From assembly GCF_003334815.1 (NCBI RefSeq), contig NZ_QOWO01000005.1: a stretch of DNA of 64,000 bases; one strand, given 5' to 3'. The position numbers were made by a program, and so were the translations under genes. Positions 1 to 4,394 of this stretch are shown piece by piece. Numbering within the stretch: position 1 is the stretch's first letter; every line of letters starts with the position of its first letter. This stretch comes from Escherichia coli (lineage in GTDB: Bacteria > Pseudomonadota > Gammaproteobacteria > Enterobacterales > Enterobacteriaceae). Under the pieces are notes generated by a model, which saw nothing but the letters and a program-made list of their open reading frames with translations, had not been told where the DNA came from and did no database searches.

Positions 1-2183
1 CGATGCGCTGCCAGGAGTTTTTCTTTCAAACCACCGATCGGCAGTACCTGACCACGCAGAGTGATCTCACCGGTCATTGCCACATCGGCACGAACCGGGT
101 TACCGGTCAGGCAAGAAACCAGCGCGGTGCACATAGCAATACCGGCACTCGGACCATCTTTCGGCGTCGCACCTTCCGGTACGTGGACGTGGATGTCACG
201 TTTTTCGTAAAAATCAGGGTTGATCCCCAGTTTTTCCGCACGCGCACGAACCACCGTTAACGCCGCCTGAATGGACTCCTGCATCACTTCGCCGAGCGAA
301 CCGGTATAGGTCAGTTTGCCTTTACCCGGAACACATGCGGTTTCAATGGTCAGCAAGTCACCGCCCACTTCCGTCCACGCCAGACCGGTTACCTGACCGA
401 CACGGTTTTCGTTATCCGCGCGACCATAGTCGAAACGCTGAACACCGAGATAGTCATGCAGGTTATCGCCGTTAATTTCGATATGTTTTAATGACTTATC
501 GAGCAGTAACTGCTTAACCGCTTTGCGACACAGTTTGGAGATTTCACGCTCCAGACCACGCACGCCCGCCTCACGGGTGTAGTAACGAATAATGCCGATA
601 ATGGCGCTATCGTCGACGGTCAGCTCACCTTTTTTCAGTGCATTACGTTCAATCTGCTTCGGCAGCAGGTGACGTTTGGCGATGTTCAGTTTTTCATCTT
701 CGGTATAACCGGAGAGGCGAATCACTTCCATACGATCCAGCAGCGGTGCCGGAATGTTCATGGAGTTCGACGTCGCGACAAACATCACGTCGCTGAGATC
801 GTAATCCACTTCCAGGTAGTGGTCGCTGAACGCTACGTTCTGCTCTGGATCCAGCACTTCAAGCAGTGCAGAGGCCGGATCGCCACGCATGTCAGAAGAC
901 ATTTTGTCGATCTCATCGAGCAGGAACAGCGGGTTTTTCACGCCCACTTTCGCCATTTTCTGGATCAGTTTACCCGGCATAGAACCGATGTAAGTACGGC
1001 GGTGACCACGGATTTCCGCTTCATCACGCACGCCGCCCAGCGCCATACGGACATATTTACGCCCGGTGGCTTTGGCAATGGACTGACCAAGAGAGGTTTT
1101 ACCTACCCCCGGCGGCCCTACCAGGCAGAGGATCGGTCCCTTGATTTTGTTGACACGGCTTTGAACCGCAAGATACTCAAGGATTCGATCTTTCACGCGC
1201 TCCAGACCATAATGGTCGGTATCAAGGATTTCCTGCGCCTGACGCAGGTCTTTTTTGACCTTGCTACGCGCATTCCACGGCACCTGTACCATCCAGTCGA
1301 TATAACCACGCACTACGGTCGCTTCTGCCGACATCGGAGACATCATTTTCAGCTTCTGCAACTCTGCTTCCGCTTTCTCTTTTGCCTCTTTCGGCATCTT
1401 CGCCGCGTCGATTTTGCGCTTCAGGGCTTCGTTTTCGTCCGGCGCGTCGTCCATTTCACCGAGTTCTTTCTGAATAGCTTTCATTTGCTCGTTCAGATAG
1501 TACTCACGCTGGGATTTCTCCATCTGCTTTTTAACGCGGTTGCGAATGCGTTTCTCAACCTGCAGCAGATCGATTTCCGATTCCATCATTGCCATCAGAT
1601 ATTCCAGACGTTCGTTAACGTCGGACATCTCCAGAACAGACTGTTTGTCAGCCAGTTTCAGCGGCATATGTGCAGCAATGGTATCCGCCAGACGCGCCGG
1701 ATCGTCGATGCTATTCAGCGACGTCAGCACTTCTGGTGGGATTTTTTTGTTCAGCTTGATGTAGCCTTCGAACTGGCTGATTGCAGTACGCACCAGCACT
1801 TCCTGTTCCCGCTCATCAATGGTCGGCGACTCCAGATACTCCGCCTTCGCAGAAAAGTGTTCGCCATTGTCAGAGAGCGCAGAAATACGCGCGCGCTGTA
1901 ACCCCTCGACCAGCACTTTGACGGTGCCGTCAGGCAGTTTCAGCATCTGCAATATAGAGGCCACGGTCCCGACGGTGAAAAGATCGTTTACACCCGGCTC
2001 ATCCGTTGAAGCTTCTTTCTGCGCGACCAGCATAATTTTTTTATCATGGTCCATCGCCGCTTCCAGACAACGGATAGATTTTTCCCGCCCGACAAATAAG
2101 GGGATGACCATGTGCGGATAAACCACCACATCGCGCAGCGGCAATACGGGGATTTCAATGCGTTCAGAACGCTCAGGATTCAT
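1..2183 (-). CDS. lon: Lon ATP-dependent protease (partial; C-terminus lies beyond window start)
   Basis: Reverse complement of 2120-2183 translates [25 protein letters not shown]; window begins inside the C-terminal domain (..KEKLLAAHR). Absent from ORF track because no stop falls inside the window. Confidence 0.95.
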
Positions 2184-2286
2184 AGAGCTCTCTCTTAGTT
2201 TAATTTCCGCCAGGTAATCAGATGACACGACTGTGCTTCACGCCATCTATTAACATGTACGTCAGTATATGGGGATGTTTCCCCCA

Positions 2287-2343
2287 CATTCAACGCCGAG
2301 AATAGAGGAAAAATTAAAGGGGAGATAAAATCCCCCCTTTTTG
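2287..2343 (+). ncRNA. sraA: Candidate small RNA in the clpX-lon spacer (SraA-like), ending at a GGGGA/TCCCC hairpin plus U-run
   Basis: Hairpin ggggagataaaatcccc followed by cctttttgg on + strand at about 2320-2345; an sRNA (SraA) is known from the clpX-lon spacer in K-12. Boundaries approximate. Confidence 0.35.
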
Positions 2344-2345
2344 GT
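2318..2345 (-). terminator. Hairpin downstream of clpX (bidirectional; shared with sRNA candidate)
   Basis: GGGGA-gataaaa-TCCCC stem-loop flanked by A/T runs, 26-50 bp after clpX stop. Confidence 0.5.
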
Positions 2346-2370
2346 TAACTAATTGTATGGGAATGGTTAA

Positions 2371-3645
2371 TTATTCACCAGATGCCTGTTGCGCTTCCGG
2401 CTTGCCATAAATCAGCAACGGTTTGCTTTGACCATCAATTACCGACTCGTCGATAACCACTTTTTCGACGTCTTCCATGGACGGCAGATCGTACATGGTA
2501 TCGAGCAGTGCGGCTTCTACGATGGAACGCAGGCCACGGGCACCGGTTTTACGCGCCATCGCTTTCTTAGCGATAGCATCCAGCGCCTCGTCACGGAATT
2601 CCAGATCCACGCCTTCCAGATTAAACAGCGCCTGATACTGCTTGGTCAGGGCGTTTTTCGGCTCTTTGAGGATCTGAATCAGAGCTTCTTCGCTCAGTTC
2701 ATTCAACGTTGCGACAACCGGCAGACGACCAATAAACTCAGGGATAAGACCAAACTTGATCAGATCTTCCGGTTCAACCTGCGCCAGCAGCTCGCCTTCG
2801 CTTGCTTTGTCGGACTTCGCTTTTACCGTCGCGCCAAAACCAATGCCGGAGCCGGTTTCTACACGGTGGGAAATCACTTTATCCAGACCGGCAAACGCAC
2901 CGCCACAAATAAACAGGATCTTAGAGGTATCAACCTGCAAGAATTCCTGCTGCGGATGTTTACGCCCACCTTGCGGTGGAACAGCAGCTACCGTACCTTC
3001 GATCAGTTTCAACAGTGCCTGCTGTACGCCTTCACCGGAAACGTCTCGGGTAATGGACGGGTTGTCTGACTTACGAGAAATCTTGTCGATTTCATCGATG
3101 TAGACAATACCACGCTGTGCTTTCTGGACATCGTAGTCGCATTTCTGCAACAGCTTCTGAATGATGTTTTCAACGTCTTCACCCACATAACCGGCTTCGG
3201 TCAGTGTAGTCGCGTCGGCCATGGTGAACGGAACATCCAGCAGGCGCGCCAGCGTTTCAGCCAGCAGCGTTTTACCGGAACCGGTCGGACCGATCAGCAG
3301 AATGTTACTTTTGCCCAACTCGACGCCATTGCTGGTATCGCCGTTGCGCAGACGTTTGTAATGGTTGTATACCGCGACCGCCAGCACTTTTTTCGCCTGT
3401 TCCTGGCCGATAACGTAATCGTCCAGGTGGTTGCGAATTTCATGCGGCGTCGGTAGCGCACTGCGTTCACGATGCGGTGCAACTTCTTTAATCTCTTCGC
3501 GAATGATGTCGTTACATAAATCAACACATTCGTCGCAGATATACACGGATGGACCGGCAATCAGCTTGCGCACTTCATGCTGGCTTTTGCCGCAAAAAGA
3601 GCAATACAGCAATTTGCCTGAGCCATCTTTGCGTTTATCTGTCAT
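2371..3645 (-). CDS. clpX: ClpX ATP-dependent protease ATPase/unfoldase subunit
   Basis: 424-aa ORF; N-terminal zinc-finger CSFCGK..CDEC, Walker A GPTGSGKT. Confidence 0.97.
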
Positions 3646-3770: not shown

Positions 3771-4394
3771 TCAATTACGATGGGTCAGAATCGAATCGAC
3801 CAGACCGTATTCCACCGCTTCAGGGGCGGAAAGGAAGCGATCGCGCTCGGTATCACGTTCAATCTGTTCTAATGATTGACCCGTATGAAGCGCCATAAGT
3901 TCATTCATGCGCCCTTTAACTTTCAGAATTTCACGGGCATGAATTTCGATATCGGTCGCCTGGCCCTGGTAGCCGCCCAACGGTTGGTGAATCATCACGC
4001 GCGAATTCGGCAGGCAAAAACGTTTACCTTTTGCCCCTGCGGTCAGCAAGAAAGCGCCCATCGAGGCCGCCTGGCCCATACAGATGGTGCTGACATCAGG
4101 CTTGATAAACTGCATGGTGTCATAGATAGACATCCCGGCAGTGATCACCCCGCCTGGGGAGTTAATGTACAGATAGATATCTTTTTCTGGGTTTTCCGCT
4201 TCCAGGAACAGCATCTGCGCCACAATCAGGTTAGCCATGTGGTCTTCAACCTGGCCAGTCAGAAAAATGACGCGTTCCTTAAGTAGACGAGAATAGATAT
4301 CAAAAGAGCGCTCACCGCGTGAGGTCTGTTCAATGACCATCGGCACCAGCGCCATATGGGGTGCAAAGTTATCTCGTTCGCCGCTGTATGACAT
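3771..4394 (-). CDS. clpP: ClpP ATP-dependent Clp protease proteolytic subunit
   Basis: 207-aa [27 protein letters not shown]...; active-site context GQAASMGA. Confidence 0.97.

Follow-up and report, generated by a model that had tools for sequence, protein, structure and literature searches.

Bidirectional terminators of Escherichia coli lie between convergent transcription units. Each has a palindromic G+C stem with an A-run on one side and a T-run on the other, so that a hairpin followed by a U-tract forms on each strand, and two convergent transcripts are ended there. The same 2001 screens that yielded SraA also yielded the Hfq-dependent small RNAs MicA (SraD), ArcZ (SraH) and RyhB (SraI), which, like SraA, are small, are encoded in intergenic regions and end in a 3' terminator hairpin. 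SraA has been placed between clpX and lon in a table of Salmonella and E. coli small RNAs (PMC3384567). A compiled table gives its function as 'Unknown' and its Hfq binding as 'ND', and the original screen, as cited there, detected a plus-strand RNA of about 120 nt by northern blotting (PMC4606813 supplement).

The clpX-lon spacer described here has the same kind of palindromic stem with the same flanks as the bidirectional terminators. It departs from typical ones in that only one of its two partners is a gene, the other being a tiny RNA with weak expression, and in that the two directions are unequal, the clpX side being stronger and better conserved. Unlike MicA, ArcZ and RyhB, SraA has not emerged as Hfq-bound or Hfq-dependent in the literature covered, has no conserved seed and no known target, and carries a short U-tail. 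The known sraA locus is probably a bidirectional terminator that chiefly serves clpX, with SraA as a lineage-restricted by-product that has no trans-acting role of its own.

Identity of the locus

The window is the whole stretch of E. coli DNA that was analysed, 64,000 nucleotides of contig NZ_QOWO01000005.1. The element in its clpX-lon spacer is the catalogued sraA locus (psrA3 or t15; Rfam RF02029; EcoCyc G0-8861), with the following features.

3-2183, minus strand: lon coding sequence, cut by the window start (NF008053, 1703.6 bits)
2255-2350, plus strand: full match to the RF02029 sraA covariance model, 95 positions, 106.7 bits
2287-2343, plus strand: annotated sraA gene, 57 nt, identical to the gene sequence in the PMC4606813 supplement
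2371-3645, minus strand: clpX coding sequence (TIGR00382, 719 bits), the message of which is ended by the hairpin

The printed sraA gene sequence (CATTCAACG...TTTTTG) is that of the window at 2287-2343. The interval thus coincides with the 57-nt gene of the annotation, and the element was known before; it is the same as SraA in locus, strand, sequence and coordinates. The lengths alone disagree on the 5' end, since the reported size of SraA is about 120 nt, against 57 nt in the annotation and 95 nt in the Rfam model. A sequence-only reading had noted that SraA is reported in this spacer in K-12, placed the element antisense to its neighbours and named the Rfam family as a check, and all of this was borne out. 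RF02029 matches over all of model positions 1-95 with 106.7 bits, far above its gathering score of 56 (E = 7.9e-18), and clpX and lon are both on the minus strand, as are tig and clpP (3771-4394) further along the locus. The location of the family, in the clpX-lon spacer and opposite both genes, is found here, and the context is the same in 10 orthologous hits. The interval 2287-2343 spans only the 3' part of the model (about 60%), and the 5' part of the match is overlapped by the lon promoter. A 271-nt stretch around the element is 100% identical to that of many strains and is present in 5425 of the 5426 complete E. coli genomes.

The status of sraA differs among the resources. No sraA annotation was found in the RefSeq records sampled (MG1655, W3110 and 60 genomes). 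In the September-2026 RefSeq record of MG1655 (NC_000913.3, 456000-459000), no sraA feature stands between clpX and lon, and the chiX ncRNA is listed. The EcoCyc entry G0-8861 is still used in papers of 2021-2025; sraA was not found in the supplements of PMC12266141 and PMC12306157. Overlap with the signals of the lon promoter and the clpX terminator may be the reason for the absence of sraA from the current RefSeq MG1655 record. For a catalogued small RNA locus in a model organism, the discovery value of the element is little, and its modest value is curatorial.

Two other identities were considered for the spacer. Other Rfam families on the terminator (DapZ, the L20 leader and sraA in reverse) gave only sub-threshold matches at chance level. 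A small protein of 16 codons starting at the ATG at 2255 was rejected because the start codon is kept in only 28 of 67 spacers, it is followed by an immediate stop in 21 of these 28, and the length of the frame varies from 14 to 32 codons across spacers.

The lon promoter within the Rfam model

The reverse complement of 2255-2300 (CTCGGCGTTGAATGTGGGGGAAACATCCCCATATACTGACGTACAT) contains a sigma70-like promoter, TTGAAT-18-TATACT, with these elements.

2256-2259, minus strand: lon transcription start (Cappable-seq and SMRT-Cappable-seq)
2264-2275, minus strand: lon -10 region, invariant, in which TATACT (2269->2264) overlaps the sigma32-type CCCCATAT (2274->2267)
2286-2294, minus strand: lon -35, TTGAAT (2293->2288), invariant across Enterobacterales

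The score of this promoter, 11.4, is at the top of the weight-matrix distribution of the window, and the matrix puts the lon start at 2256-2258. Published coordinates were mapped to the window by w = 2371 - (p - 458,700) and checked against genome records. Cappable-seq gives the lon start at 458,039 of U00096.2, which is window 2256 (relative read score, 188.9), and SMRT-Cappable-seq gives it at 458,812, which is window 2259. The elements, their spacing, the mapped start and the conservation are those of a sigma32/sigma70 promoter, the sigma32 dependence of which is predicted. The sigma32 assignment is based on the consensus published for heat-shock promoters.

TTGAAT-N-CCCCATATACT, read as its reverse complement, makes up the 5' 40 nt of RF02029. 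The lon promoter is an opposite-strand DNA signal rather than an RNA element, and it lies mostly outside the interval picked out from the sequence, where only the -35 element overlaps (2287-2294). The 5' boundary of RF02029 (2255) abuts the mapped lon start (2256), so that the lon promoter and the clpX terminator, read as the reverse complement, are exactly what the model covers.

Minor starts on the lon strand are seen upstream of the main promoter, at window positions 2291-2292 and 2347 (minus strand; 458,004 of U00096.2 in Cappable-seq, and 458,779 and 458,724 in SMRT-Cappable-seq). A weak promoter, TTATCT-18-TATTCT, which overlaps the stem of the terminator, predicts the first of them. On the same strand, the proximal 5' UTR of lon (2184-2214, …CCTGGCGGAAATTAAACTAAGAGAGAGCTCTATG) has about 92% identity and 1.76 bits over 67 Enterobacterales spacers, a conservation that exceeds the need of a Shine-Dalgarno sequence and suggests a possible leader element.

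The terminator hairpin

The hairpin and the tracts on its two sides are as follows.

2307-2315, minus strand: U-tract AAUUUUUCC of the clpX terminator, after the stem, with the mRNA 3' end inside
2316-2340, both strands: bidirectional intrinsic-terminator hairpin with an 11-bp stem and a 3-nt loop
2338-2342, plus strand: U-run UUUUU that would end SraA, shorter and less conserved than the tract on the clpX side

The sequence-only reading had described a GC hairpin and U-run after an A-rich stretch, and the sequence is as described. At 2319-2343 the plus strand reads GGGGAGAUAAAAUCCCCCCUUUUUG (GGGGAGATAAAATCCCCCCTTTTTG), and this is preceded by CATTCAACGCCGAGAATAGAGGAAAAATTAAA at 2287-2318, in which 16 of the 32 nt are A (50%). 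A terminator scan found the hairpin in either orientation: the plus-strand version has 5 pairs (2319-2335), followed by the tail CCTTTTTGGT, and the minus-strand version has 11 pairs (2340-2316), followed by the tail AATTTTTCCT; the scan gave 6 terminator-like sites in 800 nt, as compared with 0.6 expected in shuffled sequences. The stem is perfect on the minus strand, with one G.U pair, and has one A.C mismatch (A2323/C2333) on the plus strand. With this mismatch, the 3' stem-loop of RF02029, 11 pairs and then a U-run, is present at 2316-2340. The 59-nt interval folded alone (-13.6 kcal/mol, z = -1.34) is not unusually stable, 23 of 200 shuffled sequences being as good. The structure in the proposed short structured RNA is in essence that of the terminator alone.

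On the minus strand, the terminator of clpX consists of the 11-bp stem (-15.5 kcal/mol) and the tail UUUAAUUUUU, with U at 8 of 10 positions, located 31 nt past the clpX stop codon. The 3' ends of clpX mRNA fall in the U-tract in two independent datasets. The clpPX transcript ends at 458,758/9 of NC_000913.3, or window 2312-2313, in SMRT-Cappable-seq, and Term-seq gives a 3' end at 458,758 in two conditions with scores of 2765 and 3013, where it is labelled 'antisense: sraA'. The main job of the hairpin is thereby shown to be the ending of the clpP-clpX mRNA on the minus strand at 2312-2313, in agreement with the earlier suggestion that it can terminate clpX. The further suggestion that one element may serve both transcripts is right in that the hairpin is bidirectional, but the two transcripts do not share it equally, the terminator on the clpX strand being better built and better conserved. 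In the Term-seq tables, a 3' end on the SraA strand was not found.

Conservation among Enterobacterales

Loci anchored on clpX were collected from 80 species, and the spacers of 15 Enterobacterales were aligned. The RF02029 threshold was passed by Escherichia, Citrobacter, Enterobacter, Superficieibacter, Klebsiella, Yersinia and Rahnella, and was not passed by Photorhabdus, Providencia, Arsenophonus, Aeromonas, Vibrio and Shewanella. In the 15 clpX-anchored species, the invariant blocks in 'SraA' are TATATGGGGA, which is the lon -10, and ACATTCAA, which is the lon -35. The terminator stem is kept in position, with compensatory changes at 3 pairs across species.

A metagenome scan, in which the -10 and -35 blocks were the search pattern, raised the number of distinct spacers to 69. 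The two strands of the hairpin compare in them as follows; the sequences are phylogenetically related, and the counts overstate the number of independent events.

Better U-tract (69 spacers): clpX (minus strand) 54, SraA (plus strand) 4, ties 11
Mean number of U in the 8-nt tail: clpX (minus strand) 6.41, SraA (plus strand) 4.97
More stable stem (69 spacers): clpX (minus strand) 34, SraA (plus strand) 5, ties 30
Wobble (G.U) stem positions (35 distinct hairpins): clpX (minus strand) 15, SraA (plus strand) 5

A usable plus-strand terminator, CCUUUUUGG, is kept in the clade of E. coli, Citrobacter and Enterobacter. The information content of each segment was computed over 67 spacers; the values for the -10 and -35 blocks are partly by construction because these blocks were the search pattern.

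lon -10: 1.96 bits (partly by construction)
lon -35: 1.90 bits (partly by construction)
A-tract, the U-tract of the clpX terminator: 1.47 bits
terminator stem-loop: 1.35 bits
3' arm of hairpin 1: 0.89 bits
plus-strand U-run: 0.86 bits, equal to background
linker 2295-2308: 0.74 bits
neutral neighbouring segments: 0.72-0.87 bits

The invariance of the -10 and -35 blocks is shown independently by the clpX-anchored set. A conserved single-stranded seed was not found in the linker 2295-2308, the information content of which equals that of neutral spacer segments. In these alignments, the parts that only SraA would need, namely the linker, the plus-strand U-run, the 3' arm of hairpin 1 and the plus-strand promoter, evolve at the background rate. 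Constraint attributable to the small RNA itself was found neither in segment conservation nor in hairpin 1 nor in the plus-strand promoter over the 67 spacers.

Every conserved block of RF02029 coincides with a signal of the opposite strand: the lon -10, the lon -35, and the stem and U-tract of the clpX terminator. Since the blocks are opposite-strand signals and the parts specific to the small RNA drift, hits to the model such as those in Yersinia and Rahnella should not be taken to indicate a conserved regulatory RNA. What looks like 'conservation' in the Rfam sraA family would then stem from the lon promoter and the clpX terminator. Deletion or disruption of 'sraA' would also strike one or the other of these two signals.

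Transcription and function of SraA

No strong sigma70 promoter on the plus strand passes a consensus scan. A weight matrix, which correctly predicts both mapped starts on the lon strand, gives weak plus-strand candidates only.

2250-2279, plus strand: candidate SraA promoter TTAACA-18-GATGTT, score 5.35 (99.5th percentile of the window), start predicted at 2285-2287
start at 2257-2259, plus strand: candidate promoter ATGACA-18-TCTATT by the weight matrix, near the Rfam 5' end
start at 2212-2214, plus strand: candidate promoter TTCATA-16-TAATTT, for a transcript of about 130 nt, close in size to the northern band of about 120 nt

The start predicted for TTAACA-18-GATGTT coincides with the annotated 5' end of sraA, and the candidate lies wholly inside the lon core promoter. 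Only 20 of the 67 orthologous spacers have a plus-strand promoter that reaches the 99th percentile in strength. The Cappable-seq starts considered here are those of the lon strand, and SMRT-Cappable-seq excludes small RNAs.

As for the published record, SraA is listed as detected by RNA-seq in all E. coli conditions, with no differential expression across nutrient conditions. It is induced early in Yersinia ruckeri biofilms, and a change in its expression has been reported in a ydgT mutant. Its level is unchanged in a Klebsiella pneumoniae hfq mutant (-1.02-fold change in delta-hfq), it is absent from the Hfq-CLASH supplements, and its overexpression gave no phenotype in published screens of biofilm, motility or fimbriae. 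In this literature (delta-hfq, Hfq-CLASH and the 'ND' entry of the compiled table), neither Hfq binding nor Hfq-dependent abundance of SraA was found.

The reading that we regard as probable combines these results as follows. The only real structure at the locus is the palindromic G+C-rich stem at 2316-2340, which with its A-run and T-run flanks is a bidirectional Rho-independent terminator. The clpP-clpX mRNA ends at it on the minus strand, at 2312-2313, and directly 5' of it the plus strand carries the lon promoter as its reverse complement (-35 at 2288-2293, -10 at 2264-2275, lon start at 2256-2259). SraA would be a plus-strand RNA of low abundance, initiated inside the lon promoter or slightly beyond it, that is transcribed convergently into the clpX terminator and is stopped at the short U-run at 2338-2342. 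It is most likely a by-product of weak opposite-strand initiation within the lon promoter region, probably without an independent trans-acting role and with at most a minor local effect. Against this reading stand the northern band of about 120 nt, the detection by RNA-seq, the induction in Y. ruckeri, and the clade-kept plus-strand terminator and weak promoter.

The entry of SraA as a small RNA in EcoCyc-based lists and in Rfam, its generic architecture of an unstructured 5' part and a terminator, and the changes in its expression in the Y. ruckeri biofilm and the ydgT mutant are what a genuine trans-acting small RNA might show; its A-rich segment (about 2295-2318) would pair with mRNAs or bind a protein and the terminator would stabilize it. 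We consider this unlikely, as the putative seed in the linker drifts at the background rate (0.74 bits), the 3' U-run has only 5 nt after a stem with an A.C mismatch, neither Hfq dependence nor an Hfq-CLASH signal is on record, overexpression gives no phenotype and the function entry remains 'Unknown'. Action in cis, which we rate as unlikely too, might take one of three forms. The 3' portion of SraA (about 30 nt), perfectly complementary to the 3' end of clpX mRNA, might alter the decay of clpPX; the geometry is observed, the clpX message reaching 2312-2313 and SraA ending near 2343, an overlap of about 30 nt. A form of about 120 nt starting near 2213-2224 might be antisense to the lon 5' UTR, and TTCATA-16-TAATTT is a suitably placed candidate promoter for it. 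Alternatively, the SraA and lon promoters might compete for RNA polymerase, the candidate at 2250-2279 being inside the lon core promoter, and convergent collisions at the terminator might reinforce the insulation between clpX and lon; collision-assisted termination has been described in the literature at E. coli bidirectional terminators. All three forms are weakened by the apparent scarcity of SraA, which seems far less abundant than its partners (read score of 188.9 for the lon start, a strong clpX 3' end and no SraA 3' end called), and by the lack of conservation of the plus-strand promoter and U-run beyond a narrow clade.

At the other extreme, there might be no discrete SraA RNA at all, only the clpX terminator and the lon promoter, with degradation fragments, pervasive antisense transcription or probes without strand specificity behind the reported signals. 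The Term-seq tables without an SraA-strand 3' end, the missing annotation in MG1655, W3110 and the 60 sampled genomes, the lack of a strong plus-strand promoter and the fact that all conservation is explained by signals of the other strand point in this direction. We nevertheless think it very unlikely in view of the northern band of the original screen, as far as its secondary citation in the PMC4606813 supplement goes, of strand-specific RNA-seq studies that count SraA reads, and of the plus-strand hairpin with UUUUU, which is a plausible, if weak, E. coli terminator. A further possibility, which we likewise hold to be highly improbable, is that the SraA and lon promoters are overlapping, mutually exclusive divergent promoters that tune basal lon expression and add collision insulation, or that a form of SraA about 120 nt long regulates the 5' UTR of lon as a cis-antisense RNA. 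In the first case, transcription of SraA would be a local device and not noise, and clpX read-through would be insulated more tightly from lon.

Hairpin 1 and the IS186 hot spot

The 5' stem-loop of RF02029 (model positions 8-38) is present at 2262-2292, where it is built around the following palindrome.

2271-2285, both strands: GGGG-N6-CCCCC palindrome, 'hairpin 1' in the structure line of RF02029

Hairpin 1 corresponds to the lon promoter spacer together with the CCCC of the -10. Among the 15 aligned spacers of Enterobacterales, a compensatory change was not found and variation was one-sided only; the 5' arm, being the lon -10, is the same throughout, and the 3' arm is free to vary. The stability of hairpin 1 is no better than that of shuffled spacers (median z = -0.11, 34 variants). 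The match to the model itself stands, and hairpin 1 was rejected as a conserved RNA structure because of the lack of two-sided change and this median z.

The palindrome has been described as the IS186 insertion hot spot of the lon promoter (SaiSree et al., 2001, as reported in a citing paper). In the genome sequence of BL21(DE3) (NC_012971.2), IS186 is inserted with the target duplication GGGATGTTTCCCC at 2272-2284. This IS186 (L204, 1385-2925) splits the 95-nt Rfam SraA and leaves the annotated 57-nt gene intact. The 129-kb E. coli plasmid pEcFELIX533.1 (NZ_CP137697.1; L205, 90-4057) carries a full lon, the promoter of which has IS186 at this hot spot; the region is joined to hokE/ybdK DNA and looks like a chromosomal segment captured through IS186.
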